Below are positions 27,123 to 59,570 of a stretch of 64,000 nucleotides of DNA, piece by piece. The position numbers and the translations under genes are program-made. The DNA lies in assembly GCA_964410865.1 (NCBI GenBank), contig CAYPIQ010000005.1, forward strand, positions 7,037 through 71,036, in the 5' to 3' direction. The notes beneath the pieces are model-generated. The model worked only from the letters and a program-made list of their open reading frames with translations, had not been told where the DNA came from and did no database searches. Within the stretch, counting starts at the first letter, position 1, and each line of letters starts with the position of its first letter. This stretch comes from an uncultured Spirochaetales bacterium (lineage in GTDB: Bacteria; Spirochaetota; Spirochaetia; JAFGDJ01).

Positions 27123-27192
27123 ATAGTTGCTCATGCCGCCGCGCGGCAGCCGAAACGATGAAAATAGGCGGATACCGCTATTTTCGTATTAG
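27123..27192 (-). repeat. MITE-like double-hairpin repeat, copy 1
   Basis: Reverse complement CTAATACGAAAATAGCGGTATCCGCCTATTTTCATCGTTTCGGCTGCCGCGCGGCGGCATGAGCAACTAT. Confidence 0.85.
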
Positions 27193-27533
27193 TGAGAATC
27201 GGGTACAAGTATCAGTTTAACCCGCTGGTAGCAAAAAATTCCTTCATATACCCAACTCGGCATGGCAGCTATTCTTCCGTGCAAAACATTGGAGGTTGAT
27301 CCGACTCCCATGCAAGCCCGTTGTGATGGAATCCCGGCCAACGGGCTGGGAGGGCGGCAGAAAGTGCTCGACGCCTGGGAACAAGCACGACGGAATACTT
27401 TTAAAGCGAAGGCTTTTTATATTAAACAGTTTCTTGATCTACCTAAGTCAGAACAGTGCCTCGTTTGGGTAAAGGGGTAAAAATTTTAACACATATGAAA
27501 CAAAAATAAAAAATCCTCGGCAATGATAGTAGC

Positions 27534-28553
27534 TCAGCTCAGAATTTTTTTATAGACATCCAGATATCCTTTGATCATCTCTTTTATGGTAAACCTTGAC
27601 ATTGCCCAGGTATGACATTTTCTTCGGTCGATTAGTTCCGGGGTCTTGCTCAAGCTTTGAACTTTTTCAACCGCCTCGTCGATTGAGGGAACGAGAAAGC
27701 CGGTCTCCCCTTCCCGAATGAGTTCGGGCATGGACCCTCGACGAAAGGCGATCACGGGAGTGCCGCAGAGCATTGACTCGGCGACGCTTAAGCCGAAGGG
27801 TTCGTCGAAGTTGATGGGATGGAGCAAAGCAAGGGCGCCGCCGAGGAGGCGGTTTCTTTGAACCGGGCCCGCTTCTCCAAGGAATCGAATGCTTTGCCCA
27901 TCGATCTCAGGTTTCACATAGCTATCGAAATAGGCTTGATCCTGAATTATGCCGGCGATGAAAAGTGGAAGTCCGGCTTTTCGCGCAATGCTGATCGCCT
28001 CCCTGGTCCCCTTGTCGTGGTGGATTCGCCCTAAAAAAAGTAAATATTCTCCCGGCCTTTCCCTGAATGTGAAGTACTTCGGATCGATTCCATTATACAC
28101 TGTCGCGATATAATTCAGATCCGGGTGTCGATTTGCATCGCTGATTGACACGTAATGAACCACGGAGTCGTACTTCTTGTACACCGGCACTATTTTTGGT
28201 GATGAAAATCCGTGGATCGTGGTGACCATCGGTACATCGATAAGTTTGGAAAAAATCAAAGGCATAAAGTCAAAATGGTTGTGTATGATATCGAATCTAT
28301 GGGCCTGTTCCATCAGGTATGAGATATGGAGGGCCTCCCAGACTTTCGGATCGAGATTTTTATTTTCCTCGTACGGGTTGGGACAGACCGCCTCAAGATT
28401 ACCTGCTGTAATCGAATCGGCGGTTGCAAACAAGGTAACCTCATGGCCTTCGCGCACGAGGCCCTCGGCATGGTTCGAGGCCACCTGCTCCCAGGGCCCA
28501 TAATGCCTTGGAGGAGTTCTCCATGCGATGGAGGAGAGAATTGCGATATGCAT
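27534..28553 (-). CDS. Glycosyltransferase family 4
   Basis: PPRHYGPWE, FLGRIHHDKG, EPFGLSVAESMLCGTPV. Confidence 0.9.
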   Translation of the reverse strand: MHIAILSSIAWRTPPRHYGPWEQVASNHAEGLVREGHEVTLFATADSITAGNLEAVCPNPYEENKNLDPKVWEALHISYLMEQAHRFDIIHNHFDFMPLIFSKLIDVPMVTTIHGFSSPKIVPVYKKYDSVVHYVSISDANRHPDLNYIATVYNGIDPKYFTFRERPGEYLLFLGRIHHDKGTREAISIARKAGLPLFIAGIIQDQAYFDSYVKPEIDGQSIRFLGEAGPVQRNRLLGGALALLHPINFDEPFGLSVAESMLCGTPVIAFRRGSMPELIREGETGFLVPSIDEAVEKVQSLSKTPELIDRRKCHTWAMSRFTIKEMIKGYLDVYKKILS

Positions 28554-28694
28554 TCCTCAAATACCTCACTCCCGGGTATGGATGAATGAAAAGATAGCCT
28601 GGAGGCTAAGGATAGTCAAGTTTCTATTCTGTTTGCCCTTCGGGTTTCGTTTGTGTATTTTTTACTATATATACAACGTGAGAGGTCTGTGCGC

Positions 28695-30173
28695 ATGGGA
28701 TTATCGTCTCTACGTAGATCTGATATAGTGTTGAAACCGAATGCATCGAGAGTTCTTATTCGTTCTCATGCTATTCACAATAGAGAGCGGCAGCTTCGAA
28801 TTATTTCCCGCATACTCACGATGCCTCTCTCCGAGGCGAAAAGGGCGGCGGCCAAAGCTTTTGAAAAATTTGAAGATCGGCACAAAAACCTGAGCGAGTT
28901 TCTTCTGCAGAATTATCACACGGTTGAAGCTTTGGTTCCCACTGATCGTGAGTTGCCGGATGAATACAGGCTCTTGATTGGAGCAGCCTTCTCCCAGGAG
29001 TATGCCGTTGAGTCGTCGGCACTCTTCAATCCTTCCATTGTCCCGCATCCCGATCAGGGAGCTGTCCCGCCCGGAAGCCTCCGTTTTGTTTTGAGTCTGC
29101 GGGCAACCGGAGAAGGGCATGTCTCCAGCCTCGAGTTCCGCGAAGGGATAATTCATGAAGATGGAAAAATAGAAATCCAACCGGTATCGAAATTCGTGAC
29201 AGAGGGAGCTATTGCGGATAATCCCGTCTTCGGTAAAGAGGTTCTTCGAGACAAGCTGTTGGATTTGGGGGAGTTGAACGATTTTTCAAAACAGATCCTC
29301 GCCGAACTTCCACAACGGTTCAGTCTAAAGGAAATAGAAGCTGTTCTTGACTCGAACGAACGAATGAATCGACAGGTTTCTTTGGTATGGGGCCCGACGA
29401 TCAACAGGATGCGGACACTCCTTAGATCTCATTACACCGTGAGCTTTGACGAAAGTCGTCCGATATCGGAACGGGTAATCTACCCAAAAGCTCCGACTGA
29501 AAGAGGCGGTATAGAAGATGCGCGTTTTGTTCGCTTTGTAGAAGAGGATGGAAGTGCTGTCTATTACGGGGTATACACCGCCTTTGACGGAACGGTGATT
29601 CTTCCCCAGCTCATTTCCAGTAAAGATTTTCTGAACTTCAATATAAGCACACTCAATGGACCGCAGATCGAGAATAAAGGCCTGGCTCTCTTCCCGCGGA
29701 AGGTGAACGGGCGCTACGCAATGGTAGGGAGGCAGGATAATGAGAACCTCTACCTGATGTATTCCGATCGCCTCCTGTTTTGGCATTCCAGGGAACTTTT
29801 ATTGCGCCCCACATATATTTGGGAGACCGTGCAAATCGGCAACTGTGGGTCTCCAATTGAAACCAAATGGGGCTGGCTCCTTCTTACTCATGGAGTCGGC
29901 CCCATGCGTACCTATTCAATTGGCGCTGTGTTGCTCGATCTTGAAAATCCCTCGAAGGTGACCGGTCGTTTAACGAAGCCGCTCTTAGAACCCATCAAGC
30001 GTGAAAGGGACGGATATGTTCCCAATGTGGTCTATAGTTGTGGGGCTTTAATACATCGGGACAGACTGGTTTTACCCTATGCAATGAGCGATTATTCTAC
30101 AGGATTCGCTACTGTGGACTTGGAGGAGTTGATACATGAACTGAGGCGCCGGGGAGGTGAAGAACATGGATAA
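28695..30173 (+). CDS. GH130-related glycosidase/phosphorylase
   Basis: ALFNPS, GEGHVSS, GGIEDARF, YTAFDG, NKGLALFP, QIGNCGSP, VPNVVYSCG; start ATG 28695. Confidence 0.85.
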   Translation: MGLSSLRRSDIVLKPNASRVLIRSHAIHNRERQLRIISRILTMPLSEAKRAAAKAFEKFEDRHKNLSEFLLQNYHTVEALVPTDRELPDEYRLLIGAAFSQEYAVESSALFNPSIVPHPDQGAVPPGSLRFVLSLRATGEGHVSSLEFREGIIHEDGKIEIQPVSKFVTEGAIADNPVFGKEVLRDKLLDLGELNDFSKQILAELPQRFSLKEIEAVLDSNERMNRQVSLVWGPTINRMRTLLRSHYTVSFDESRPISERVIYPKAPTERGGIEDARFVRFVEEDGSAVYYGVYTAFDGTVILPQLISSKDFLNFNISTLNGPQIENKGLALFPRKVNGRYAMVGRQDNENLYLMYSDRLLFWHSRELLLRPTYIWETVQIGNCGSPIETKWGWLLLTHGVGPMRTYSIGAVLLDLENPSKVTGRLTKPLLEPIKRERDGYVPNVVYSCGALIHRDRLVLPYAMSDYSTGFATVDLEELIHELRRRGGEEHG

Positions 30174-32487
30174 GATCAGAAGAATTGCTATTGTTGGTGA
30201 CTATATTCCACGTCATTGTGGTATTGCAAAATTTACCCATGATCTATATAAAGCGATAAAACTACAGGCACCGAAAACCGACGTCCAGATAGTTACGGTA
30301 AATGATACAAAAAACGGGTATTCCTACCCGGAGGAGGTCTGTTTTGAGATCGGCGAAGAGATCCGGGAAGAGTATGAACGTGCGGCGGATTATCTGCACG
30401 TCAACAACATCGATGTCGTCTCCCTCCAGCACGAGTTCGGAATTTACGGGGGAAGTTGGGGTAGCCACATTCTTCCTTTTTTAAAATCGCTTCGCATTCC
30501 GGTAGTTACCACGCTTCATACCATCCTCCAGGAACCGAATGTCGAGCAAAGGCACATTCTTCGGGAAATTGGAAGGACCTCCACTTTTCTAGTTACCATG
30601 GCGGAGAAAGGACGAGAGATGTTGAAGGATGTGTATGATCTCGAAGCAGGAAAGATCGAAGTAATACCCCATGGGATCCCCGATATGCCTTTTGTTGATC
30701 CGAATTTTTACAAGGATCAATTTGGAGTAGAGGGAAAACATGTCATCTTAACGTTTGGTCTTCTCTCCCCGAACAAGGGCATAGAGCAGATGATCGAAGC
30801 TCTCCCGAAGATCATCCAAGAGGTACCGGATACCGTTTACATCGTGCTGGGAGCTACCCATCCCCATCTTATTCGCAGAGACGGTGAGGCCTATCGATTG
30901 AGTCTCACCCGCCTGGTCGAGCGCCTGGGAGTGAAGGACAATGTGATTTTTTACAACCGTTTTGTCTCTGATGAGGAGCTGCGGGAGTTTCTTGGAATGG
31001 CAGATGTGTATGTGACCCCATACCTCAATGAAGCTCAAATTACCTCAGGAACTCTCTCCTTCGCTTTTGGATGTGGAAAAGCGGTGGTTTCTACACCCTA
31101 CCGACATGCTGTTGAACTCCTTGGCGGCAACAAAGGAATCCTTGTCCCCTTTAAGGATTCTCGGGCTATGGCAAATGCGATTGTTCGTCTTCTTAAAAAT
31201 GAATCGGAACGACACGCCATGCGCAAGCGCGCCTACCTTCTGGGAAGAGAGATGACCTGGGCCCAGGTAGGAGGCAGATATGTAGAGTTGTTCGAACGTG
31301 CGAGGAAGAGCGCGCCGGAACGGGCCACTACTCGCCACTTTGCGGTTCGTACATTGGCGAACAGTCCACGACGTCTTCCGGAGTTGAAACTGGATCATCT
31401 GAAACGGTTCACCGACGATACCGGTCTTCTACAGCATGCAAAGTATTCAATACCCAATCGCTTTGAAGGATACTGTACCGATGACAACGCTCGGGCTTTG
31501 GTGCTTATGGAAATTCTCAAAGAGCTTGGGATCCGAAATGAAGATCTGACTTTTATGGAATCCGTGTATGCCGCATTTTTAAACCATGCTTTTGATTCCG
31601 GGACAAGGGTCTTTCGAAATTTTCACTCCTATGATCGCCGGTGGATAGATGAACAAAAATCCGAGGATTGCCAGGGGAGGGCCTTATGGGCCCTGGGAAC
31701 CGTAATCGGCCGATCGGAAGATGAGGAACTTGTTTCATGGGCAGTTGAGATTTTTAACGCTGCCTTACCTGTTGTGCTTGAATACCCGTCAATTAGGGCC
31801 TGGGCTTTTACTGCTCGGGGTATTTACGAGTATGTGCAAAGGTTCCAGGGAGACAGGACAATTCGGTTGGCTGCCCACCAACTTACGGATCGTTTTATGG
31901 ATGCTTTTCAAAATGAGTCGACGCTTATCTGGAAATGGTTCGAAGATAGACTAACCTATGAGAACGCCAGGTTATCGGAAGCACTCATTCTTCTATCTAT
32001 ACTTACTGAACGGCAGGACGCCCTGGAAATCGGACTTGAGAGCTTGCGATGGCTTGATAGTGTTCAGCAATCTGATCAGAGCAACTTCAGACCAATCGGG
32101 AACAAGGGTTTTTACCCTAGCGGTGGATCTCCGGCCTACTATGACCAGCAACCGGTGGAGGCAGCCGCTATGGTATCCGCTTCCATTGCCGCGTATATTG
32201 CCTCGGAAGATGATCGGTGGGGAGAGACCGCCCACCGGAGCTTTGAGTGGTTTCTCGGCAGGAATGACCTATCTATTCCTCTCTATGATCCCAGGACGGG
32301 AGGCTGTTTTGATGGCCTGATGGTAGACAGGGTAAACCGCAATATGGGAGCAGAATCAACCCTTTCGTTTTTACTTTCCCTGGCCGAAATAAAGCTGCTG
32401 GAAAACCGGCTTGCCACGTATGAAAGCGCAAAGGAGCCGGTAATGAAGGAGAAGACTATCGCCGGACTTGAAATGATAGAGCAATGA
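30166..32487 (+). CDS. GT4 glycosyltransferase fused to a C-terminal alpha/alpha glycosidase-like domain
   Basis: CGIAKFT, QHEFGIYGG, FGLLSPNKG, SGTL; C-terminal GLLQHA, YCTDDNARAL, YENARL, YDQQPVE, NMGAEST. Confidence 0.85.
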   Translation: MDKIRRIAIVGDYIPRHCGIAKFTHDLYKAIKLQAPKTDVQIVTVNDTKNGYSYPEEVCFEIGEEIREEYERAADYLHVNNIDVVSLQHEFGIYGGSWGSHILPFLKSLRIPVVTTLHTILQEPNVEQRHILREIGRTSTFLVTMAEKGREMLKDVYDLEAGKIEVIPHGIPDMPFVDPNFYKDQFGVEGKHVILTFGLLSPNKGIEQMIEALPKIIQEVPDTVYIVLGATHPHLIRRDGEAYRLSLTRLVERLGVKDNVIFYNRFVSDEELREFLGMADVYVTPYLNEAQITSGTLSFAFGCGKAVVSTPYRHAVELLGGNKGILVPFKDSRAMANAIVRLLKNESERHAMRKRAYLLGREMTWAQVGGRYVELFERARKSAPERATTRHFAVRTLANSPRRLPELKLDHLKRFTDDTGLLQHAKYSIPNRFEGYCTDDNARALVLMEILKELGIRNEDLTFMESVYAAFLNHAFDSGTRVFRNFHSYDRRWIDEQKSEDCQGRALWALGTVIGRSEDEELVSWAVEIFNAALPVVLEYPSIRAWAFTARGIYEYVQRFQGDRTIRLAAHQLTDRFMDAFQNESTLIWKWFEDRLTYENARLSEALILLSILTERQDALEIGLESLRWLDSVQQSDQSNFRPIGNKGFYPSGGSPAYYDQQPVEAAAMVSASIAAYIASEDDRWGETAHRSFEWFLGRNDLSIPLYDPRTGGCFDGLMVDRVNRNMGAESTLSFLLSLAEIKLLENRLATYESAKEPVMKEKTIAGLEMIEQ

Positions 32488-32557
32488 GGGGTACAACTAT
32501 CACCAGGGCTGTCTGAGGCGGCTTCTGCCGGAACATCTTTTGGTGAGGATTTTTTAA

Positions 32558-33994
32558 AATTATCGTTTTGAAAGAACCTTTATAGGAAAGATCGAGGATT
32601 TTGAGGATCTCGGGGAGGGATATTTCAGAACCGTTATCAGTTATGCCGTTGAAACGGCCGGCCGGGATATCGTTCAGTTTTTGAATGTGGTCTTCGGAAA
32701 TATAAGCATCAAACCCGGCATCAAGGTGGAACGGCTTCTTTTACCGGAGGATATGCTAAAAAATTTCATCGGACCTCGATTCGGCAGGGAAGGACTCCGG
32801 AGAAGACTGCGTATAAGCAACCGGCCGCTTATCTGCACCGCCCTTAAACCCATGGAACTCTCCGCCTCCGAACTGGCGGAAAAAGCGTACCGTTTTGCCA
32901 GGGACGGTATTGATATCATAAAGGACGATCACGGCCTGGCGGATCAGGTATTCTCGCCCTTTACCGGACGGGTAAAACGCTGCGCCGAGGCGGTGGCAAA
33001 GGCGAATGCAGAGACGGGAGGATCAACAATCTACATGCCCAATATCACGGCTCCCTTCGATCGGATCAGGGAGTGCTGTGAAACCGCCTTGCGGGAGGGT
33101 GCCGGGGGATTCCTGATCTGCCCAGGATTGTGCGGAATAAATACCATGCGGTATGTAACAGCATGTGATGAATTCGACGTTCTCGTAATGGCTCACCCGG
33201 CTTTTTCCGGAAGCTTTGTAACCTCCACTGAGAACGGACTGAGTCATTACATACTCTACGGACAGCTCATGAGGCCGGCGGGGGCGGAATTTCTGTCTTC
33301 ATATTTAAAGCCCAAATGCCGGATAGGCGTTGCCTGGAGCAGGACGGTGAGTTCGATGTTATCCTATGTTAAACCCTCCCAGGCGCATCCGGATTGCCGC
33401 ATCAATGAGCTTGCCGGGACCTACCTGGCTCCTCACATACCCTACAGTGTCAGCCGTCCCCTGGCGGAGAAGCTGAATATCCATCTGGAAAGCATCCCGG
33501 TGCCCGTCCTGCTAAAAAGTGAAGAAAAAATAAATATTATCCTTCAGGAAGAACTGATCCGTACCGCCCCGGCGAACGCCCTGGAGGTGGATGTTGCCCT
33601 GGTGGGTATCGGAAATATTTCATCCACCTCGAGCCTTGCAAGAACAGGGTATATAAGCCGGGAACACATGGACGAAATTCGATTAAAGAAGGCCGTCGGC
33701 GATATCCTCATGCGTTATTTCGACAGCCGGGGCAGGCATTTCCCCATGTCCTTCGAAGACCGCATCGTTTCACTGAAGTGGGAAGAGATTATGAAACTCT
33801 CTTTTGTCATGGCCATGGCCTTCGGGGCGCAGAAAATCGAACCCATCAGGGGGGCTCTACGGGGTGGAATTATCCACGGATTGATAACCGACCGTGAAAC
33901 CGCCCTTCAGCTTCTCGACGAAGCGGCCGGGGACGAACGAAAAGACTCCGGCATGGATAATGGTATTCCGGGTCCATCGCCTAGTGGACCCTGA
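32558..33994 (+). pseudogene. Chimeric ORF: 5'-truncated RuBisCO-like protein (form IV) fused in frame to a SorC/DeoR sugar-binding domain
   Basis: GPRFG, ALKPM, IKDDHGLADQ, AHPAFSG, then IGVAWSRT...VALVGIG...GDILMRYFD...GALRGG...LITD; in-frame stop at 32555 and no start codon. Confidence 0.8.
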
Positions 33995-34011
33995 TAATAG
34001 GACCAGATTTC

Positions 34012-34625: not shown

Positions 34626-34628
34626 CAC

Positions 34629-36636: not shown

Positions 36637-36715
36637 AACGATCCTTTCTTTACCGGCCCGGCCGTCCGCGTTGTTCCGGGAGTCCGGCTGTCCTTATTTT
36701 CATATTTTACTATAG

Positions 36716-37069: not shown

Positions 37070-37124
37070 AACCTCACCCTGTGTGTCGAGGTTTTTCATC
37101 GCTTCTCCGGCGGAGAGGCGAATC

Positions 37125-45159: not shown

Positions 45160-45230
45160 TATTAGCTGCTCATGCCGCCGCGCGGCAACCGAAAGGATGA
45201 AAATAGGCGGACACCGCCATTTTCGTATTA
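45160..45230 (-). repeat. MITE-like double-hairpin repeat, copy 2
   Basis: Near-identical to copy 1; TA at both ends. Confidence 0.85.
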
Positions 45231-45243
45231 TCTGTTAAATAAA

Positions 45244-48828: not shown

Positions 48829-48900
48829 CTATTACGAAAATTGCGGTAACCGCCTATTTTCATCGTTTTGGTTGCCGCGCAGCGGCATGAGCAACTATTA
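48829..48900 (+). repeat. MITE-like double-hairpin repeat, copy 3
   Basis: CTATTACGAAAATTGCGGTAACCGCCTATTTTCATCGTTTTGGTTGCCGCGCAGCGGCATGAGCAACTATTA. Confidence 0.85.
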
Positions 48901-48980
48901 TGTAAAAGGAATCCCAATGTTTCCATATAAGAGCCGGCCGGCGGCAGATAGAATTCCGGTTAATCTCAAAGAGTAACAGA

Positions 48981-50036
48981 ATGAATTTTTATTATGCTCT
49001 ATATGCGGCCCTGGGAGGTAGTGTTCTTGCCATGGGGTTCGCTTTATTTAAAACACGCTGGATTTATCGGCAAAAGGTTGAAAGCCTGGAATTGGCGAAG
49101 ATTGCCTGTTTTGTACAGGAAGGCGCAATGGCGTTTCTTTCGAGGGAATACAGAACCCTTGTTCCTTATGTAGCAATTGTCGCGGTATTTCTTGCCCTTC
49201 CCGGCGGTACCGTTATGGGGATGAGCGTCGTCGGCCTTTCGTTACTCGGTATTTTTATCGTTCTTCTTGTGTTTATACGACTGGCCGGCAGCGGTGTCCC
49301 TGAACTCAAGACTCCGGTGTTTCCCCTCCTTTCAGGCTTCTCCCTGGGGGCATCGTCTATTGCTCTGTTTTCCAGGGTGGGTGGAGGTATATTCACCAAG
49401 GCGGCGGATGCAGGGGCCGATCCGGTTGGAAAAGTAGAAGCCGGTATTCCTGAAGACGATCCGCGTAACCCGGCCACCATTGCGGATAATGTGGGCGATA
49501 ACGTGGGTGACGTTGCCGGTATGGGAGCCGACCTCTTCGAGTCCTTTGTAGGTTCTATTGTCGGAGCGATGATTCTCGGACTCTCGGTAAGTGCTTCCGA
49601 CGATCTGCGTATAAAACCGGCGGCGGTTTCGCTGCTGCTTGCCGTTACAGGCCTAGGCGTAGGTATGATGTCCGCCTTTCCTGTGGTGATACTCATCGGC
49701 TCCGCCATGGTGCTGAGCAACCTCCCAGCCGGTCTATATGGAATAGCGATTTCCGCCGTCGGCATGCTGGTAACCCTGGGTATTCAGCTGGCGGTGGATG
49801 CCTACGGACCCATCGCGGATAACGCCGGCGGGGCCTGGGACAATGCAAAGAAGATGATAGAGAGCGGCAACCTGGGTGGGAAAGCATCGGAAGCCCACAA
49901 GGCAGCAGTGGTGGAAGACACCGTCGGAGATCCCTTTAAAGACACCGCCGGCCCGTCGTTGAATATACTGATAAAGTTGAAGTCGGTGGTATCCCTCGTC
50001 ATTGCACCTATGCTAAAAACATTTCATGGATTATAA
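48981..50036 (+). pseudogene. Collapsed membrane pyrophosphatase paralogue (351 aa, at least 3 in-frame deletions)
   Basis: HppA motifs [28 protein letters not shown] retained but large blocks missing; conserved residues altered (GADPVG, VVEDTVG, IKLKS). Confidence 0.85.
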
Positions 50037-50069
50037 ATCCATGTAAAAAATATTGAAGGAGAACCAAGT

Positions 50070-52265: not shown

Positions 52266-52297
52266 CGTATACTAACAGTAAGAAGGAGGAGCTGTTT

Positions 52298-53083
52298 ATG
52301 GAGTACCGGAATCACCTTTACATGATTTTACATCCGAATCCCTCACTTGTCGCTTCGCAGTATAACCCGGACCAGTTCGCGACGCACTATATGTCGGGGT
52401 CGACGAGACACTATAACGGCAAGGTTATCTTTGCAGAAATAGATATCAACTATCGTCATGATTATCTGAATATAGACCGGGGCTTGAAAGAACTGGTGCC
52501 GCACGACGACGGAAGTCCCAAGGCGACCAAGTTTATTTCCACATACCGGGTACTGGAACACATAGATTTCGACGCTATCCAGCGCCTGTACCTGACAACC
52601 CCTTCGGCTATTGTCCTGGGTCTAGATCCGGCGCCGTATACAACGGTCCATCAGCCCGGTTTTATCAGGATATTCGCGGAAATAACCCCCATGAGGATGC
52701 TGGTCCTTACAAAATTAAACTTTCCGGAATTCGGCCGGTATATTACGGACCCGGATAATCCGAAAGGGGCTCCCAAGATTTTCTATACGCAGATCGATTT
52801 CGATATCGAGTATTTCATGCGGGAAATAAAGGAGAATCCCTTCCTCAATACTCCCCTGCCCAGCGTTCATTCTTCAAAGCTGCGGGACGCAATTATTGAG
52901 TTGCAGAATAATCCGGAGAAGAGGACTAAGGGCTTGAGCCTTGACAGCAATCTGAACCGTAAATCCTATAAATACCTGAAACACGGATTCATGTTTGCCT
53001 CCCAGAAAGGAACAAAGTTTTTCCCCATACCTCCTCTGGACGTTATCGAGGAAACGAATTATAAATTCTGGAAGGAAATGTGA
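52298..53083 (+). CDS. Hypothetical protein
   Basis: 261-aa ORF with AGGAGG SD, directly downstream of hppA. Confidence 0.75.
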   Translation: MEYRNHLYMILHPNPSLVASQYNPDQFATHYMSGSTRHYNGKVIFAEIDINYRHDYLNIDRGLKELVPHDDGSPKATKFISTYRVLEHIDFDAIQRLYLTTPSAIVLGLDPAPYTTVHQPGFIRIFAEITPMRMLVLTKLNFPEFGRYITDPDNPKGAPKIFYTQIDFDIEYFMREIKENPFLNTPLPSVHSSKLRDAIIELQNNPEKRTKGLSLDSNLNRKSYKYLKHGFMFASQKGTKFFPIPPLDVIEETNYKFWKEM

Positions 53084-53101
53084 TTGATCCGAATGTATCG
53101 A

Positions 53102-53160
53102 TGACTCCCCTGAAAAAAGAGGACTGGGAAAATGGGCAAATTCCTTAGTTAGGGGAGTCA
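53102..53160. mobile_element. 59-bp miniature IS3-type element
   Basis: TG...CA ends, TIR TGACTCCCCT/AGGGGAGTCA, flanked by a 4-bp direct repeat TCGA (53098-53101, 53161-53164). Confidence 0.65.
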
Positions 53161-53290
53161 TCGATTTTTAAAACCCCGCTCAAAAGGGGGGTGCACGACA
53201 ATTTCGTTTTCACCAACCACATTAAGCTCTTTTCCGTGCGGGCTTTGACATTCGGATAGATATATGTAAAATAAAGTGCTAAGGTGAAGT

Positions 53291-53548
53291 ATGAAAAAAA
53301 ATCTTTTTTCCATTATAGGCATTATCCTCCTTGTCGCCGGAGTGACAGCCTTGGTATATGGTCTGACAACCTATACCCAATTGCAGGATGACATTGCCAA
53401 CCGGTTCGCCAAGGCAATCTCGGGTTCCAGTAATCAGGAGACCCAGGCCCTGTATATCACCATTACCGGAGGGGCGGGAATACTGGTGGGGCTTATTCTC
53501 ATGATCGCTAATCGAAAAAAAAAGAGCAGAAAGAAGCGCAGGCGCTGA
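53291..53548 (+). CDS. Small two-TM membrane protein (DUF3185-like)
   Basis: SIIGIILLVAGV.ALVYG...ISGS...GGAGILVGLIL with basic tail. Confidence 0.75.
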   Translation: MKKNLFSIIGIILLVAGVTALVYGLTTYTQLQDDIANRFAKAISGSSNQETQALYITITGGAGILVGLILMIANRKKKSRKKRRR

Positions 53549-53555
53549 GGTATTC

Positions 53556-54089
53556 ATGAGGAAAAGGTATGCAGCGTTTCTTTTTCTCATTCTACTGGCA
53601 ACCTCCGGGCTCTATGCCGGAGAAAAGGAGCCGGCGGCTTTCTCCGCCGAAATCAGCGGCGGGTCCTGCCTGTTCATTCCCCATACGGCCGTTCTCCTCA
53701 ATATCTCATTTCCCCTTGGCTCGACTCATTTTCGTATTGCCGCCCAGGCAGGGTGCAATTATCTCTTTAATGTCTGGGACGCGGTGCATGCCGGAAATTT
53801 TTATTTTCCCATGGGGTTCGAATTATCCTATATCCCCATGCATCTCGGTTTTTCATGTCTTTACCATATGTCCCTTTCAGATATAACAGGGGAAGGGATT
53901 ATCGAAACCTCATTCCGAACCTATCTTGACCTGGTGATAAAGCCGCGTTTCGAATTTCAACTGTTTTTTTCGCTGGGACTCTCCGCCTTCTGGGATTATA
54001 ACACCCAGCCGGTGTTCCCGGTTACCGCTGACATCGGACTCCGGTTTCGCTTTCCCTTTCGAAAAAGTACTGGGTCGGACAGTACCTAA
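53556..54089 (+). CDS. Hypothetical secreted or outer-membrane protein
   Basis: Signal peptide MRKRYAAFLFLILLATSGLYA; alternating beta-strand-like pattern. Confidence 0.65.
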   Translation: MRKRYAAFLFLILLATSGLYAGEKEPAAFSAEISGGSCLFIPHTAVLLNISFPLGSTHFRIAAQAGCNYLFNVWDAVHAGNFYFPMGFELSYIPMHLGFSCLYHMSLSDITGEGIIETSFRTYLDLVIKPRFEFQLFFSLGLSAFWDYNTQPVFPVTADIGLRFRFPFRKSTGSDST

Positions 54090-54191
54090 TCGGAAAGACT
54101 CATAACCGACAACTCATTCGTTGTCCTGCCGCCTGCTTGACACCTTTTTTTAAACATTATATATTACACCCGCTTTTGAAAATATAATCCC

Positions 54192-54276
54192 GCTGCAGTG
54201 GTGGAATTGGTAGACACGCTAGCTTGAGGGGCTAGTGAGTATTGCACTCGTGGAGGTTCAAGTCCTCTCTGCAGCA
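54192..54276 (+). tRNA. tRNA-Leu(GAG)
   Basis: Acceptor GCTGCAG/CTGCAGC-A, D loop GGAATTGGTAGAC, anticodon stem CTAGC-TTGAGGG-GCTAG, long variable arm, GGTTCAAGTCC. Confidence 0.96.
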
Positions 54277-54305
54277 TAACAAAACCTTGAATAACAAGGA
54301 AATAC

Positions 54306-54335
54306 AAACCACCCTAAGCAACAGGGTGGTTTTTT
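54306..54335 (+). terminator. Rho-independent terminator after the tRNA
   Basis: AAACCACCCT-N7-AGGGTGGTTT followed by a T run. Confidence 0.75.
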
Positions 54336-54399
54336 AGTGTGCCCAGCATGGGTGATAACTTGGCGGTGAAAGTCCGCTACATTCTTGTTCGTTGATGTT

Positions 54400-54678
54400 G
54401 GTCAAATATCCATGCCCAATTCGATGATCACGATTCAATAATTTTTCTATACGTGCGTTCATCGTTGAGAGCAGTTTATCCAAATCGATTTCTTCCACCG
54501 CATGTGGAGATTCAGCAAGTACAGTTGGATCAGGCTCCATTTCAATAAAAGAAAATCTTCTCTTTAGAGCGGTATCTAAAGCCTCAACACTACGGTCGGC
54601 TGTATTCATTGTTCCGATTATGTTGAGATTGTTGGGGATTACAAACTCTTCACCTGAGTATGGCAGTTTCACCTTCAT
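54400..54678 (-). pseudogene. McrB-like AAA+ GTPase fragment
   Basis: LPYSGEEF.IP.NL.IIGTMNTADRS...LDTALKRRF...IGHGY; both ends missing. Confidence 0.8.
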
Positions 54679-54928
54679 GGAGTTGGATTATGATGATATT
54701 ATAGGGCGGAAGTGTTATGAACTTGTTCATGATACGAAGGAGCCCATCTCTGCGTGTCCCTGTGCGCAAGGTCTTAAGACCGGTGAGTCAGCAATCAATG
54801 AATATGAGGAGAACGGCAGGGCCTACGAACTAGCTGCCTGGCCCATATTTGACCCTGTTGATAATAGTATAAAATCATTTGTTTATATTGTGAGAGACAT
54901 TACTGAGAAGAATGAAACGGCACTATAA
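54677..54928 (+). pseudogene. Isolated PAS-domain fragment
   Basis: IIGRKCYEL.H.....CPC...L.TG...WPIFD...VYIVRDITE; abuts the McrB fragment back-to-back. Confidence 0.6.
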
Positions 54929-54980
54929 AACTAAAAAAAGTACAAATCCTATGTTTATCATTCGATTGGGAGAGGACTAT

Positions 54981-55160
54981 ATGGCAGAAAAAATAGGAGA
55001 TAACCTCGTAAAAATAGGAGCAATGACCCAAGAGCAAGTCAACAATATCATCCAAAGACAGAGAGATGGAGATACACGGCTGTTCGGGGAAATCGCTATT
55101 GAGCAAAATTATATAGATGATGATGTTCTCGCTAAATATTTAGAACGTAAAGAAACTTGA
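54981..55160 (+). CDS. Stand-alone MshEN-like domain protein (59 aa)
   Basis: KIGDNLVKIGAMTQEQVNNIIQRQ and LFGEIAIEQNYIDDDVL match the tandem RLGxxLxxxG...Q MshEN motif; SD GAGAGGA. Confidence 0.75.
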   Translation: MAEKIGDNLVKIGAMTQEQVNNIIQRQRDGDTRLFGEIAIEQNYIDDDVLAKYLERKET

Positions 55161-55170
55161 TGAAACAGTC

Positions 55171-56157
55171 GTGTTCAATGGCTCAATATGGTATATTCGA
55201 ACTGTGTTGAATTTACTCTTGCTCATTATAGGGTTTCTTCCGCTGATTTTCGGGGCTCGCTTATTAGTCGATGGAGCATCATCCGTCGCCACCCGTTTCA
55301 ATGTTCCTAATATAGTCATAGGCCTCACCATTGTTGCCTTTGGCACGTCCGCCCCAGAATTGGTAGTTAATCTGATAGCTGCTATCAATCAAAACTCTTC
55401 GCTTGTATTGGGAAATGTGCTTGGCAGCAATATCTTCAATATTTTGGGGATAATCGGCATTGCAGCCCTCATCTACCCGCTGCAGGTAAAGAGCCGAACC
55501 ACCTGGATAGAAATCCCCCTGAGCTTCCTGGCCGCAGTGGTTCTGTTGGTTATAGCACATAAGCAGCTTATTGACGGAACGCCATTCAACAGCATTGTGA
55601 GAACCGACGGTATTGTATTGCTGTTGTTCTTTAGCATATTTATTGCCTACAGCTTCCATTCCATTTCAAGCGATTCAACTCCTGAAAAAGTTGAAGTACA
55701 CAAATTTTCCACGCTGCATTCCGTTCTCTACATACTCATCGGTCTTGGATTGCTCATTGTAGGTGGACGAGTGATTGTCCAATCGGCTGTACGCTTCGCT
55801 CAAAGGATAGGTCTCCCAGAACGGATAATTGCCCTTACTATTGTCTCAATAGGTACTTCTCTGCCCGAATTGGCTACATCAGCTGTCGCCGCATTCAAAA
55901 AAAATGTAGACATTGCCATAGGGAATATTGTCGGTTCGAATATATTCAACGTCTTTTTTATCCTCGGTCTATCGGCTGTGGTATATCCTGTAAAAGTAAC
56001 GACATCCTCAGCGCTCGATCTCTTGGTGCACACCGGAACGGCAGTACTACTATTTGCCGTCATCTTTATAGGAAAAGGACGAAAAGTCGACCGTTGGGAA
56101 GGAGCAATTTTTATCGGCCTTTACATTGCATATATAACAGTTCTTCTTACAGTTTGA
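55171..56157 (+). CDS. Calcium/sodium antiporter (YrbG/CaCA family)
   Basis: Two alpha repeats AFGTSAPE...GSNIFN and SIGTSLPE...GSNIFN; exact start uncertain. Confidence 0.92.
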   Translation: MFNGSIWYIRTVLNLLLLIIGFLPLIFGARLLVDGASSVATRFNVPNIVIGLTIVAFGTSAPELVVNLIAAINQNSSLVLGNVLGSNIFNILGIIGIAALIYPLQVKSRTTWIEIPLSFLAAVVLLVIAHKQLIDGTPFNSIVRTDGIVLLLFFSIFIAYSFHSISSDSTPEKVEVHKFSTLHSVLYILIGLGLLIVGGRVIVQSAVRFAQRIGLPERIIALTIVSIGTSLPELATSAVAAFKKNVDIAIGNIVGSNIFNVFFILGLSAVVYPVKVTTSSALDLLVHTGTAVLLFAVIFIGKGRKVDRWEGAIFIGLYIAYITVLLTV

Positions 56158-56191
56158 TGCTCCCATAATAATTGATGTCGTATCATTAAGC

Positions 56192-56596
56192 TCATCTCTT
56201 CTCTCTCAGTAGATCCCTTATTTCCGCTAACAACAATTCCTGTGATGAAGGTGCAGCCGGAACTTCCTCCTGTGCTTCTTCTCTCCTTCTCAGGGAATTG
56301 ATAGCTTTAACCACAAAGAAGATTACAAAGGTAATAATTGCAAAATCAACTACCGTTTGTATAAACCTGCCGTACCCAATTACAACAGCAGGAACCTCAT
56401 CTGTTGCTTTTTGTATAGTAATGGATAGACGAGTAAAGTTAACTCCACCGATTAGCACGCCAATGGGAGGCAATATAATATCATTAACTAAGGAAGTTAC
56501 GATGCGGCTGAAGGCTGATCCAATAATAATTCCGATAGCCATATCAACAACATTTCCTCGGATAGAGAACTCTTTAAGTTCTTTCATAATCTTCAT
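56192..56596 (-). CDS. mscL: Large-conductance mechanosensitive channel
   Basis: KEFSIRGNVVDMAIGIIIG.AF..IV.SLVNDII.P, YG.FI, LLAEIRDLL; start ATG 56596. Confidence 0.95.
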   Translation of the reverse strand: MKIMKELKEFSIRGNVVDMAIGIIIGSAFSRIVTSLVNDIILPPIGVLIGGVNFTRLSITIQKATDEVPAVVIGYGRFIQTVVDFAIITFVIFFVVKAINSLRRREEAQEEVPAAPSSQELLLAEIRDLLREKR

Positions 56597-56824
56597 ATTT
56601 CCTACTCCTCTTATATGTTCATGGATCAAATGTAATGGATAACGGACCTTTTATTAAGCATCAATAAAGATGTAGAGTGTGTCTACTTGTCTCTCAGCTT
56701 TCTAAATAGATACTGGACAGCCACGATAGGATGCCTATGCATCATTCTTGGTCCGGAGAATCGCATAACTTCCTTAATACGCTCTTTCATTTTAGGTTAC
56801 ACTGAATTACAGTGCACTTACATT

Positions 56825-56910
56825 CTAATACGAAAATAGCCGCACCGGAATAGCCGCACCCGGCTGTTTTCATCCTTTCGGTTGCCGCGCAGCGGCATGA
56901 GCAACTATTA
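56825..56910 (+). repeat. MITE-like double-hairpin repeat, copy 4
   Basis: Same core with an internal tandem duplication of AATAGCCGCACC. Confidence 0.85.
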
Positions 56911-57103
56911 TAAAAATATAAAAGATCGAAGGGGTGCAGGACGGGCGAGGATTGCACTTATCAGGAAATTATGTGGAGTAATGCGAAGGATGCTCCCGGA
57001 TGGTGAACCATTGAGGGATATCCATATTGAACTGTACAACAAGAAAATCAGTCAGTTTGACCGGACTATAAAAAGAATTGAACAGGATAAAAAAATCGCT
57101 TGA
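56911..57103 (+). pseudogene. IS110-family transposase C-terminal fragment
   Basis: KDRRGAGRARIALIRKLCGVMRRML..GEP. Confidence 0.65.
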
Positions 57104-57203
57104 CTTTTATCGTAGTGGGTAAAGAAAATACTCCCCCGTCCCTAATTTATTTAAACAGAAGCTTCTGCTTTTACCGGCAACGTAAAAGGCTCAGTTCCAA
57201 GAG

Positions 57204-58787
57204 TTACCGCCTCTTGGGTTGATTTCGTACAGCTCCATAAAGGTATTCATACGTTCCAGTGATATCGGTGTTTGTAGTTGGGGCTTCATGTATTACAAGT
57301 CGTGTCAGCCATGGATTTTTCGTGGTTGAAGGGTCTTTTCCTGATCTGCGTACATAGATCGTGCCCTGGGGTATATTCAGGATAACTTTTCCGAAGGGAA
57401 ACCTCTTTCCAGTCCGCTCATCCTTTAGGATCGAAACAGTGGGTATGGGTGAACCAAGATAGCTGAATACACGGCCGACATACACATGGGTCCCCTCATC
57501 TTCGGGGGGAGAAATGTAGACCTTTTCTCCTTGGCTATAGGGACGAAGGATCTCTTTCAGGTTATTAAGTAGATTTTCATCAAACCTGGGACTGTATACC
57601 TTTGTATCTCGACGATAGGAATAGGTTCCACTGGATTCTTCGATGTGCATGAGAGCCTTGTGGCGACTGAAAGCCGTTTTGCCAAGGACGGGATTGGTCA
57701 GTTCGTCCCATGTATCGATGATATGGAAAAGCCGGATGAATTCATGAAGAAAGTTATTTCGATCTATGGGAGGATATCCAGTCCCGTCCGGATAATCGTA
57801 CTGACCGGTAATCATCATGCGTGAGATCGGTGATATATCCTCGCGGTTGCGCACAAGATTTTTTACGACGTTGTAGTTTCGTCTGAGTATTTTTATTATT
57901 TCCAGTTCGCGCTTGCTCCCTCCTGTAAGAACGGGCTTGGTCGACATGACTTCATGAACCGTAACATGACAAAAACCCAGTGCATGTATAAGAATTCCCA
58001 GGCCTGCCTGGATAATTAGGTCCCTGTCGTAGTAATATATATCTTTCTGAAAAGAAGGTTTTTCGGGGTTGAACCGGGTTGTTGAAAGTTTCCCGCCGGA
58101 TTTAATTCTGTTGCGGTTAATCTGGGCCATGGAGAGCATAAAAAGGAGGGCTGAATCCACAGCATGCCATACCAGGGCATCTCCGACCGACTGTAGTCTC
58201 CCGGAATTGAAAATACTGTGTAACCTGATAGAATGGAGCCCCGTAGGTAGTTTCTTCTCATTTACCTTACCACCGTCTTCTTTAGAAGGGATAATTCCTT
58301 CGATGTATTCATACAAACGGTCGAGATCGGTTTTCAGGTTCTGTAGTACGGCCGGAGTCAGGATTGTTTGGCTCCCGGCATCTATATCGCCCTGATAGAG
58401 AGGGCCTGGCTCTGGAGATAGGAGAATATCTGCGGTGATCTGCTTTTTCCTTCCTCTGGCACAGAAGCCCCTGTCCAACTCGGAGAAAGGTACATAGACA
58501 GAACGCAGCTGTTCGACGAGTCGGGATCGAAATCTGTCAACGGCGGTTCCTCTGGCCCCGATTACTTCGAGGATGAACTTGTTTTCATCCATCCCGGTGG
58601 CTTTTATACGTGCGCGTTCTTCATAGGTCGGATTGATTACTGTTACAACCGCTGCTTTATGGGTTCCCAGGAGACGAATAAGCTTTTCATCCACCTGTCT
58701 GCCTGCACGGGCAAGTATCCCGGCATCTACAAACAAGCGGTCACCCCCGCCAAGTCGGTCAATACTCTTTCTTTCTATAGATGGCAT
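57204..58787 (-). CDS. Protein with a degenerate HD-GYP-like domain
   Basis: WHAVDS, GILIHALG (HD replaced by HA), YDYPDGTGYP, IIDTWDEL; GGAGA SD before ATG 58787. Confidence 0.75.
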   Translation of the reverse strand: MPSIERKSIDRLGGGDRLFVDAGILARAGRQVDEKLIRLLGTHKAAVVTVINPTYEERARIKATGMDENKFILEVIGARGTAVDRFRSRLVEQLRSVYVPFSELDRGFCARGRKKQITADILLSPEPGPLYQGDIDAGSQTILTPAVLQNLKTDLDRLYEYIEGIIPSKEDGGKVNEKKLPTGLHSIRLHSIFNSGRLQSVGDALVWHAVDSALLFMLSMAQINRNRIKSGGKLSTTRFNPEKPSFQKDIYYYDRDLIIQAGLGILIHALGFCHVTVHEVMSTKPVLTGGSKRELEIIKILRRNYNVVKNLVRNREDISPISRMMITGQYDYPDGTGYPPIDRNNFLHEFIRLFHIIDTWDELTNPVLGKTAFSRHKALMHIEESSGTYSYRRDTKVYSPRFDENLLNNLKEILRPYSQGEKVYISPPEDEGTHVYVGRVFSYLGSPIPTVSILKDERTGKRFPFGKVILNIPQGTIYVRRSGKDPSTTKNPWLTRLVIHEAPTTNTDITGTYEYLYGAVRNQPKRR

Positions 58788-58826
58788 AGTATCTCCAGAT
58801 GCACAATATATATTAAACACACACTC

Positions 58827-59498
58827 TTACTGTTGTAATCTTTTACCGGTCCATTCGGCTATCTTTCTGAACAGGATACCTTCGTTCAAAGGTTTAGATA
58901 TAAAATCATCAATTCCCACTTTATAGCGGCTTTCGATGTCTGATTGATAGACCTGGGTGGTAAGAGCTATAATTGTTGTCCGTGGCCAGTCGTATTGTTC
59001 TTTCTCTTTCCGGATCTCCTCTACAGTTTCAAGGCCGCCCGGAACAGACATGCCAAGAACCATGAGAAGCGGGTCAAATTTTTTCACCGCCCAAGCCTCC
59101 ACAGCATACCCACCATTTCATACGGTTGTAACAAAAAAACCTCTGCTTTTCAAGATTCGGTGAATAAAAAGCCGGTTGATTGCCTCATCTTTCGTTATCA
59201 GGACATGTACCGGGGATTTATCACTTTCTTCAGTGAGAGATTCTCCCGTTTCTTCCTCCGGTATTGAATCCATATCCAACTGTCTGCAAGGGCAAAAGAA
59301 CGGTAAATACGGTTCCCTTTCCGGGATAGCTGTTTATTGACACTTTACCGTTCATGAATAAGCAGAGTTGTTTGACTGTTGAAAGCCCCAACCCGGCACC
59401 CTTGTTGCGCTTGCTCTGTCCCGTGGGTAGTTGTATAAACCGGTCAAATATTTTCTCTTATTTATCCTCGGGAATACCTGGACCGGTATCAATCACTT
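58827..59498 (-). pseudogene. Hybrid histidine kinase remnant (HATPase plus receiver)
   Basis: DTGPGIPEDK*EKIFDRF, GAGLGLS, GKGTVF, then a receiver with IIALT and SKP; truncated at repeat copy 5. Confidence 0.8.
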
Positions 59499-59570
59499 CT
59501 AATACAAAAATAGCCGCACCCGGCTGTTTTCATCGTTTCGGTTGCTGCGCGGCGGCATGAGCAACTAATA
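59499..59570 (+). repeat. MITE-like double-hairpin repeat, copy 5
   Basis: CTAATACAAAAATAGCCGCACCCGGCTGTTTTCATCGTTTCGGTTGCTGCGCGGCGGCATGAGCAACTAATA. Confidence 0.85.

Follow-up and report, generated by a model that had tools for sequence, protein, structure and literature searches.

A 66-bp orientation-specific repeat at CTA sites in spirochaete genomes, probably a non-autonomous mobile element

Five copies of a short repeat with two hairpins were found in the window, the whole 64,000-nucleotide stretch of DNA that was analyzed. They are probably members of a small, non-autonomous, orientation-specific family of mobile elements. The element is a previously undescribed variant of the REP/MITE-like repeats. 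A genome-wide search of the source genome, a 3.06-Mb assembly (G000), found about 113 copies at 89 loci. An earlier note on the window had called the repeat an abundant miniature element and both terms were supported, the second by a 66-bp non-coding unit. Of the 89 loci, 87 were intergenic; by our crude in-house gene calls, 86.5% of the genome is coding. Comparison with relatives provided empty sites with exact boundaries, and such polymorphism means that the element is, or was, mobile. A search with the Rfam 15 covariance models returned nothing, either at gathering thresholds or with E<=10. Likewise, no match was found in the plasmid collection, the phage collection or the viral contigs, and no description of the element was found in the searched literature. 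Against these sources, the repeat can still be called possibly unclassified.

The unit and its copies in the window

The unit consists of a 63-bp core and a terminal CTA, 66 bp in all, and a second subfamily has a 77-bp core. Its formula is 5'-W-TAC(G/A)-(H1)-ATCSTTTCG-(H2)-TGAGCAA-CTA-3', with WTACGAAAAT... at the left end and ...GAGCAACTA at the right. Both of the hairpins that had been described were present with the consensus claimed for them. As had been noted, there was also almost no terminal inverted repeat: of 13 positions compared between the left end and the reverse-complemented right end, 2 agree. The stem of H1 has 11 bp, GAAAATAGCCG/CGGCTRTTTTC, and its top is variable. H2 is TGCCGC-GNN-GCGGCA with its variable positions confined to the loop, and from one spirochaete family to another there is hardly any change in H2 or the sequence flanking it. 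The two hairpins are unlike each other in sequence.

The variants of H1 were captured by a regular expression anchored on the conserved ends of the stem. All 72 distinct variants fold with at least 8 pairs despite their differing tops (AGCC/GGCT, AGCGG/CCGCCT, TGCT/AGCA and AGTCG/CGACT). At one orthologous copy (L122 compared to L125), the top of H1 was swapped and the pairing kept. Covariation statistics for the alignment of G000 and G008 copies did not reach significance, owing to the high similarity among the copies and to the difference between the two H1 registers.

The five copies were confirmed at 27123 (-), 45160 (-), 48829 (+), 56825 (+) and 59499 (+). A scan of the window with a 26-nt core pattern, allowing up to 3 mismatches, gave 5 matches compared to 0 in 100 shuffles. 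The copies and the features next to them are as follows.

26895..27134, minus strand, 79-aa ORF; its start is the ATG inside copy 1; single in the genome
27124..27192, minus strand, copy 1; unit 27124-27189, target CTA 27190-27192 in the minus-strand reading; subfamily B, H1 top GCGG..CCGC
45163..45231, minus strand, copy 2; unit 45163-45228, left-junction triplet ATA (45229-45231) rather than CTA
48829..48897, plus strand, copy 3; target CTA 48829-48831, unit 48832-48897
56825..56907, plus strand, copy 4; target CTA 56825-56827, 80-bp unit 56828-56907
56913..57103, plus strand, C-terminal remnant of an IS110-family transposase; adjoins the right end of copy 4, in frame with the ATG of the element
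58827..59457, minus strand, decayed hybrid kinase/receiver pseudogene; C-terminal half of HATPase_c 59230-59457, receiver fragments 58827-59333
59499..59567, plus strand, copy 5; target CTA 59499-59501, unit 59502-59567, H1 59506-59531, H2 59543-59557

Four of the five copies had been thought to abut decayed sequence. This was seen for three, copies 1, 4 and 5, which adjoin truncated genes, but not for copies 2 and 3. The right (ATG) end of copy 1 adjoins the 79-aa ORF, which had no Pfam or NCBIfam match, and its previous label of "IS4-like" was without support. Copy 4 belongs to the subfamily with the 77-bp core and carries a 14-bp internal duplication within H1. The remnant next to it covers the C-terminal ~42 residues of a transposase of the IS110 family (NCBIfam NF033542 positions 302-343, E 4.6e-4). 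Copy 5 adjoins a 5'-truncated HATPase_c kinase pseudogene, the missing 5' part of which would extend into the copy. The 100-bp spacer that holds copy 2 separates two intact genes, Met_synt_B12-like and MttB. Copy 3, upstream of a short hppA paralogue, is a simple insertion, and the empty site in the same-genus genome G001 retains ACTAT.

Junctions, empty sites and arrays

TA flanks had been reported for the element. TA is indeed present, but the conserved flank is CTA-W, and it is found at both junctions. The left flank has C at a frequency of.91, T at.94 and A at.96, and the right end after GCAAC continues with T at.96, A at.92, W at.89 and T at.71. The W bases of the two junctions are independent (25 match and 18 differ). 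New copies sit immediately 3' of the target 5'-CTA-3', with an occasional CTG, CTT, GTA or ATA instead, and the target consensus is asymmetric, C-T-A^W-T. The last three bases of the element itself are also CTA. Therefore, both junctions read CTA without a regular target duplication, the left one being the target and the right one belonging to the element.

The element was missing in G001 at all nine syntenic loci examined. Polymorphic loci with ~90% flank identity came from the genus of G234, G171 and G185; 13 were compared and 10 could be resolved. The empty sites of the resolvable loci retain a single CTA or a near variant, exactly one CTA at six of them. Three loci contradict a target duplication. 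At L078, the empty site ATCTG|TAATAG corresponds to ATCTG(TTAAG..GAAACTA)TAATAG when filled, and at L155, ..CCTT|TAATAAGG corresponds to ..TCTT(..GAAACCA)TTAAGAAGG; no base is duplicated at either. At L153, the left triplet is the target GTA and the right one is the CTA of the element. A 7-bp flanking direct repeat (TTAACTA/TTAACTG) counts against an account without duplication, and it was seen at one polymorphic locus only, L163. Within G000, 10 + 5 junctions had discordant triplets compared to 1 with concordant triplets, a difference that later mutation could also explain.

These sites bear on the earlier proposal of IS630-type TA targeting. By this explanation, the repeat would be a MITE mobilized by a DDE transposase of the IS630/Tc1-mariner-like (or IS5-like) type, and TA or CTA would be both its target and the sequence duplicated. 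The TA (CTA) found at both junctions in ~80% of copies agrees with it, and the six empty sites with one CTA would, taken alone, be compatible with a 2-3-bp duplication. However, such an element should have terminal inverted repeats, a symmetric target and a duplicated base at L078, L155 and L153, none of which was seen, and its arrays would not be exclusively head-to-tail. Since the empty sites keep a single CTA or variant and three loci contradict duplication, the element was not classed as an IS630-type TA element, and we consider that origin highly improbable.

Arrays were common in G000, with 18 doublets and 3 triplets. All 21 are head-to-tail with a 66-bp period and one CTA common to neighboring units. 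The sole exception to this order is one unit beside an H1-only palindrome. Because each insertion would recreate the target at its own 3' end, strictly head-to-tail 66-bp arrays with a shared CTA would be expected from the way the element inserts. Two other repeat arrays were compared and rejected. With a period of 66, a 31-nt GTTTC...GAAAC module and a 35-nt "spacer" could be read as CRISPR-like, but the 35 nt between H2 hairpins are always H1 and there are no variable spacers. The true CRISPR array of G000, on contig C19, is type I-C-like with the repeat GTCGCACCCCTCGCGGGTGCGTGGATTGAAAC and is unrelated in sequence to the element. Integron attC sites have RYYYAAC ... GTTRRRY in one long imperfect hairpin and form a co-oriented array next to intI. 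The polarity of H2 is opposite (GTT...AAC), and the copies are dispersed over many contigs and both strands.

Candidate mobilizing enzymes

It had been suggested to look for a full-length element and its transposase. Searches of G000, the long-read relative G234 and 32 metagenome contigs yielded neither a full-length parent nor a mobilizing enzyme. Orphan left or right ends in G000 did not reveal a parent element, and an inverted pair in G234 encloses a phosphofructokinase gene and is not one either. Little weight can be given to the lack of a transposase, since these are mostly short-read MAGs, in which multi-copy ISs often stay unassembled. The earlier note had also offered an HUH or IS110-like mechanism. 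The lack of inverted-repeat ends, the lack of a regular duplication and the insertion 3' of a fixed short sequence agree with this idea, but the enzyme genes, the strand bias and the IS110 ends do not.

An HUH enzyme of the IS200/IS605 or REP/RAYT type would bind single-stranded hairpins through a Y1 transposase, cut 3' of CTA both in the target and at the right end of the unit, and move a single-stranded DNA circle, its gene being unassembled, lost or divergent. The element resembles IS608, ISDra2 and the miniatures derived from IS200/IS605 (palindrome-associated transposable elements) in its ends without inverted repeats, its lack of target duplication, its insertion 3' of a fixed short sequence, its subterminal hairpins and its defined orientation. 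The foot of H2 is 10 nt from the right cleavage point, a distance that resembles the right end of IS608. Arrays that are only head-to-tail would also fit, and G000 has one Y1_Tnp gene (C2:165035-165550) with HUH and Tyr motifs. This gene, however, has no units in its flanks. Y1, TnpB and Y2 genes are missing from most carrier genomes. In a protein search, Y1 homologues were found in 90 of 401 genomes, unrelated to the presence of the element; the element-free G001 has 3, whereas the carriers G008, G171, G185 and G251 have none. The Y1_Tnp HMM, searched in 13 genomes, had no match in 8 of 10 other-genus carriers, and TnpB was absent in all 14 genomes tested. The carriers without Y1_Tnp were these four and G182, G049, G044 and G155. 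The end hairpins of IS200/IS605 elements resemble each other, in contrast to H1 and H2, and the target here is 3 nt long and repeated as the 3' end of the element. A strong replication-strand bias towards the lagging-strand template is expected of single-strand transposition of this type. No such bias was seen by GC skew (42 compared to 50 copies), although genes do follow the skew (1258 compared to 755). Finally, the alternating orientation of BIMEs or REPINs is not seen in the arrays. We therefore regard a Y1 enzyme as doubtful. An IS91-type Y2 HUH enzyme was rejected: G000 has only Y2_Tnp fragments, ~150 bp from one unit, G119 has one match and the other 12 genomes (11 carriers) have none. 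The IS91 target is also GTTC/CTTG, while that of the element is CTA.

Another candidate is a bridge-RNA-guided recombinase of the IS110 family that moves the mini-element in trans, with CTA as the core common to donor and target. IS110 elements have no inverted-repeat ends and a short core at both junctions. There are 8 Transposase_20 matches in G000, one of them intact, and one remnant adjoins copy 4. But the only intact copy (C40:265-1726) interrupts H1 of a unit, and its ends, TTCAGAGAGTG... and ...CATAGAGAGGA, are unlike the unit ends. L078 disagrees with exchange inside a CT core, since the left triplet there takes its third base from the target and the right triplet takes it from the element. 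Movement by an IS110 recombinase is thus improbable. With its H1 interrupted by an IS110 copy, the element is a target of IS110 rather than a derivative of it. A similar case is ISPpu9, an IS110-family element that inserts into the REPs of Pseudomonas putida (PMC8450116). This parallel covers the element as a target only and does not account for the element's own movement.

The asymmetry of the element, its ends without inverted repeats and its fixed cleavage position suggest an enzyme that acts in trans and is specific for a strand or a structure; it is probably not a cut-and-paste transposase of the DDE type. H2 would be the likely recognition hairpin. Insertion occurs 3' of CTA, and the 3' CTA of the new copy would offer the next target, resulting in head-to-tail growth. 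In a second role, which was observed, the copies act as insertion targets for the IS110-family element. We tentatively propose, as one possible form of such an enzyme, a nuclease or recombinase with structure specificity, distinct from both the Y1/Y2 HUH and the DDE enzymes and of a class so far unconnected with miniature repeats, that recognizes H2, cuts 3' of CTA and copies units into any CTA. If true, free-living spirochaetes would have a transposition system of a new kind that spreads horizontally among them. Small repeats outside genes are common but, to our knowledge, a mobilizing enzyme is known for few of them. Here, single-base resolution has been reached for the ends, the CTA target and the exact empty sites, and tests of RAYT/IS200 Y1, TnpB, IS91, IS630-type and resident IS110 enzymes supported none of them. 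The span of ~11 families and the almost invariant 15-nt hairpin make a search for the partner protein tractable by phyletic profile and biochemistry.

Known repeats, distribution and effects on the host genome

REP/BIME and REPIN-RAYT systems (Nunvar 2010, PMC2817692; Bertels and Rainey 2011, PMC3116915; Di Nocera 2013, PMC3733652) share several features with the element. They are short GC-rich hairpin repeats with ~100 or more strictly extragenic copies that are often clustered, and they have a short motif beside the hairpin, GTAG in REPs and, adjoining H2 in the element, CTA (TAG in the complementary strand). REPs are also frequent targets of IS110-family insertion, like the element. Unlike REPs and REPINs, the units have two dissimilar hairpins and show neither alternating orientation nor inverted doublets. 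There is no RAYT flanked by units, and the presence of RAYT does not track the element. Correia/NEMIS and other TA-targeting MITEs (RUP, IS630-type; reviewed in Delihas 2011, PMC3184786) are alike in size class, abundance in intergenic DNA, TA junctions and possible terminator- or promoter-like signals, but the element has neither the long terminal inverted repeats nor the genuine TA duplication of those MITEs.

Homologues were found in 22 of 401 genomes of the class, in about 11 families. Units in G251 and G234, which belong to another family, score as high as the copies of G000 itself, and none were found in G001, the only same-genus relative. From these scores, this pattern suggests horizontal spread. 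The distribution looks patchy, in contrast to REPIN-RAYT systems, which are described as mostly vertically inherited.

A further explanation is that the unit is a module selected by the host, such as a bidirectional terminator with a protein-binding hairpin, and that CTA microhomology lets it spread, mainly through recombination or template switching rather than with a transposase of its own. The predicted fit of H1 to the intrinsic-terminator consensus, on one or both strands, agrees with this, as do the compensatory changes that keep H1 paired even at an orthologous copy, the near invariance of H2 and the absence of a transposase from our searches. On the other hand, copies are not concentrated at gene 3' ends or in convergent gaps, and they show no orientation bias relative to genes (23 compared to 19). 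Near-identical units in different families, with none in the genus-mate, are also not expected of such a module, and ~110 insertions with exact boundaries would be hard to obtain without an enzyme. A host module therefore has little likelihood, and a mobile element is still preferred.

The copies had been associated with adjacent deletions. As a general rule this did not hold, since there was no genome-wide enrichment at decayed regions. The intergenic regions that host copies have a median of 330 bp, not longer than the length-weighted expectation of 481 bp (363-632), and all 22 loci comparable with relatives are simple insertions with collinear flanks. Copies may still be end points of deletions between direct copies, which would explain the three window copies that adjoin truncated genes. 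Units break metagenome assemblies, introduce hairpins that resemble terminators into intergenic DNA, draw in IS110 elements and may initiate deletions; therefore, they should be masked and annotated in spirochaete genomes.

The ATG of the element had been noted to be in frame with two remnants. This was correct, but it can be attributed to chance: the frame is open in 9 of 72 cases compared to 6 and 8 for the other two. It was not enriched genome-wide, the ATG had no ribosome-binding site, and 48 of 98 copies read ATG AGC AAC TAA.

Window copies and fold of the unit

All five copies described in the earlier note were present in the window, and aligning them reproduced the consensus it had given. 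A search with a 26-nt core pattern that tolerated three mismatches matched exactly these five sites and gave no match in 100 shuffles. Four of the five had been said to abut truncated or decayed sequence; this was upheld for copies 1, 4 and 5, but copies 2 and 3 are plain intergenic insertions:

27123, minus strand: copy 1, adjoining a 79-aa ORF without a Pfam or NCBIfam match
45160, minus strand: copy 2, a simple insertion between genes
48829, plus strand: copy 3, a simple insertion between genes
56825, plus strand: copy 4, adjoining the final ~42 residues of an IS110-family transposase
59499, plus strand: copy 5, adjoining a kinase pseudogene with a truncated 5' part

A short hppA paralogue at 48981-50036 of the window lacks three internal blocks (~160, 310 and 520 bp) of its orthologue in the same-genus relative G001 (C85:43598-45431). 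The missing blocks are either natural or the product of an assembly collapse between two hppA copies.

Both of the claimed hairpins formed when the 66-bp unit was folded as DNA or RNA. The left hairpin, H1, has an 11-bp stem (GAAAATAGCCG/CGGCTRTTTTC), and the right hairpin, H2, reads TGCCGC-GNN-GCGGCA. The unit ends match at only 2 of 13 positions, in agreement with the near-absence of a terminal inverted repeat noted before. Hardly any variation was seen across families in H2 and the linker (TTTCGGTTGCCGC...GCGGCAT); the variable positions lie in the H2 loop. H1 keeps its AT-rich lower stem and varies at the top (AGCC/GGCT, AGCGG/CCGCCT, TGCT/AGCA, AGTCG/CGACT, plus shorter or longer loops); a regular expression anchored on the conserved stem ends retrieved 72 distinct variants, and every one of them folds with at least 8 pairs. 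Two metagenome contigs, L122 (Ga0102943_1054977) and L125 (Ga0102941_1044572), represent one locus in two strains, and their H1 tops differ, yet each keeps its own complementarity. The H1 top is wholly replaced between them (TATTGCTGAAAGCAAT versus AATAGCCGTATCCGGCTATT), and H2 and the flanks are unchanged. Covariation counts in the alignment of units from the source genome (G000) and its relative G008 were not significant because the sequences are too alike and the two subfamilies differ in their pairing register. In one check H1 matched a simple consensus for terminators on both strands, and in another on one strand.

Genome-wide copies and their junctions

A profile built from the five window copies gave 113 matches in the G000 assembly (3.06 Mb, 67 contigs, 51.5% GC; the window is C5:7037-71036). 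Both ends could be anchored in 102 complete units. The core is 63 bp long in 71 of these; in 27 it measures 77 bp and includes a 14-bp internal duplication, and 4 units are odd. Subfamilies A (n=43) and B (n=26) and the 77-bp class (n=27) are each ~95% identical to their own consensus. The copies occupy 89 loci, of which 68 hold a single unit, 18 a doublet and 3 a triplet. By our own rough gene prediction (2,626 genes, 86.5% coding), 87 of the loci are intergenic; the remaining two overlap doubtful ORF starts. The copies in G000 showed no preference among convergent, divergent and co-directional gaps or for a position within the gap, and their orientation relative to neighbouring genes was even (23 versus 19). 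Units stand at the ends of several contigs (C14, C40, C44 and C61), so the repeat breaks up the assembly.

Every array runs head-to-tail, with a period of 66 bp, or 80 bp in the long subfamily, and neighbouring units within an array have one CTA in common. In the sole apparent plus/minus pair, what follows the unit is an H1-only palindrome (CTATTACGAAAAT...ATTTTCGTAATAG), a variant that is also present by itself at C2:40181. H1-only palindromes with the left end mirrored (CTATTACGAAAATAGCC...GGCTRTTTTCGTAATAG) were seen at C2:40181 and at C47:6679-6738. Template switching across the hairpin may have produced these palindromes. At C19:1-3800, a type I-C-like CRISPR array of ~58 repeats (GTCGCACCCCTCGCGGGTGCGTGGATTGAAAC) has the same 66-bp period as the element by coincidence, and its first spacer occurs three times at the contig start.

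Left-junction frequencies were taken only from units without another unit as left neighbour. The three bases before W, the first base after CTA, were C (.91), T (.94) and A (.96), and the sequence was random further upstream. On the right, ...GCAAC was followed by T (.96), A (.92), W (.89) and T (.71); beyond these bases the signal died away. The base frequencies at the two ends therefore place CTA-W at both junctions, and the left and right W are independent (25 match and 18 do not). Variant junctions in G000 comprised 10 with a left variant and a right CTA, 5 of the converse and 1 with concordant variants. Taken alone, the discordant junctions could be accounted for by later mutation at ~5% divergence.

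Empty and filled sites

G001 was the only same-genus genome compared; it has 71-77% nucleotide identity in genes and no copy of the element. In nine of nine syntenic G001 loci that were aligned, the unit was missing and the flanking genes were collinear. The alignment is exact at copy 3, where G001 reads ...TTTACTAT^CATATAATC... versus ...TTTACTAT[TACG...GCAACTAT]TATGTAAAAGG in the window (caret, insertion point; brackets, unit). Polymorphic insertions were also found, and could be resolved better, among G234, G171, G185, G223 and G267, genomes of another genus with ~80-95% flank identity among themselves. Ten of the 13 polymorphic loci were resolvable. Exactly one CTA is present in six empty sites (L075, L076, L079, L082, L085 and window copy 3), and their filled counterparts read CTA[W-TAAG...GAAACTA]. 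Three pairs contradict a target duplication.

Table. Empty and filled sites that contradict a target duplication (caret, insertion point; brackets, unit)
L078: empty ATCTG^TAATAG; filled ATCTG[TTAAG...GAAACTA]TAATAG
L155: empty ..TTCCTT^TAATAAGG; filled ..TTTCTT[TTAAG...GAAACCA]TTAAGAAGG
L153/L161: empty CTGTA^AACC; filled TTGTA[TTAAG...GAAACTA]ATCC

At L153/L161 (G171:C95 and G185:C33), compared with L167/L168, the insertion coincides with the stop codon that ends the upstream gene (...CTG TAA when empty), and the unit brings in another stop one codon further on (TTG TAT TAA). At L163/L172, compared with L170, a 7-bp direct repeat (TTAACTA...TTAACTG) flanks the unit and is single in the empty site; a flanking repeat of this type is missing at every other resolved locus. 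The rule that best fits the empty and filled pairs is that a 66-bp segment, with its own CTA at its end, would be placed directly 3' of a CTA-like triplet. The TA flanks had previously been taken as a sign of IS630-type targeting, which is contradicted by the lack of inverted-repeat ends (2/13) and by the three pairs without target duplication.

An association with adjacent deletions, as earlier proposed, did not extend genome-wide. Host gaps minus the unit had a median of 330 bp, shorter than the 481 bp (363-632) expected for random insertion by gap length, and the insertions were collinear at 22 of the 22 loci compared with relatives. At 33 of 79 loci, no more than 30 bp separate the unit from a gene end. 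The outward ATG, which had been described as in frame with two of the remnants, reads ATG AGC AAC TAA in 48 of 98 units, and its frame was no more often open for at least 60 codons genome-wide than the other two (9 versus 6 and 8 of 72). For the local association in the window, we infer two best readings: units may build up in DNA that is already dispensable, or recombination between direct copies may delete the interval and leave one unit at the scar.

Candidate mobilising enzymes, classification and distribution

The hairpins and the lack of inverted-repeat ends agree with the HUH or IS110-like mechanism that had been suggested, but Y1, TnpB and Y2 do not track the element and the IS110 ends are unrelated to it. 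G000 has one Y1_Tnp gene (C2:165035-165550, 171 aa, HUH motif SHYHFII, tyrosine motif YIAMNPV), which is RAYT-like, single-copy and AT-rich, with no unit in its flanks. Homologues of this gene, often in several copies, are present in 90 of the 401 class genomes, regardless of the element: there are three in the element-free G001 and none in the carriers G008, G171, G185 and G251. The Y1_Tnp Pfam model was silent in 8 of 10 other-genus carriers tested, TnpB was missing from 14 of 14 genomes tested, and Y2 (IS91) gave just two fragments in G000 and one match in G119. An IS91-like (Y2_Tnp) pseudogene with a frameshift (C7:98909-99700) is separated by ~150 bp from a unit near a contig end. No replication-strand bias was seen in unit orientation relative to GC skew (42 versus 50), although genes did track the skew (1258 versus 755).

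Transposase_20 had eight matches in G000, and the intact IS110 copy is C40:265-1726. This IS110-family element of ~1.46 kb (C40:152-1745 region; transposase of 413-433 aa at C40:420-1721) sits inside H1 and splits a unit into halves at 214-260 and 1727-1745. Since it interrupts H1 and does not resemble the unit at its ends, the repeat is an IS110 target, as are Pseudomonas REPs (PMC8450116).

A full-length parent element was not found in G000, the G234 loci or 32 metagenome contigs that carry ordinary units. Most genomes compared are short-read metagenome assemblies, which often lose insertion sequences. The record name of G234 contains 'polypolish', which suggests a long-read assembly; its 9 contigs hold at least 12 units and only one Y1 match, which lies at the end of a contig and has no units beside it.

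In its hairpins, its lack of inverted-repeat ends, its placement 3' of a short, fixed sequence and the absence of a regular duplication, the element matches the behaviour of REP-like or IS200/IS605-like miniature elements. Against identity with the RAYT-associated repeats, the G000 Y1 gene is not linked to units; against IS200/IS605 identity, Y1 is missing from most of the carriers tested and TnpB from all the genomes tested, and there is no strand bias. Neither feature of an inverted-repeat-end/TA-duplication family was found, the ends are not identical to those of the resident IS110 as in a derivative, and the unit has neither CRISPR nor attC anatomy. It belongs among the small non-autonomous extragenic repeats and lacks defining features of every named family tested.

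Rfam gave no match even at E<=10, and none was found among plasmids, phages and viral contigs. A covariance model built from 59 units of G000 and G008, with up to 12 candidates per genome scored, detected the family in 22 of the 401 class genomes, spanning ~11 family codes, and seven genomes had at least 12 candidates. Scores in G251, G234, G171 and G185, from another family, reached the level of those of G000 itself (98.7 versus 97.5 bits). One sequence type (...TAAG...CATGCGAAAC) occurs in G008, G234, G171 and G185, and another (...TACG...CATGAG(A/C)AAC) in G000, G251 and some metagenome contigs. Because these types cut across taxonomy and the element is missing from G001, the pattern of sequences looks like horizontal spread. 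Related matches in a public collection were in metagenome-assembled genomes labelled Spirochaetaceae or Spirochaetia.
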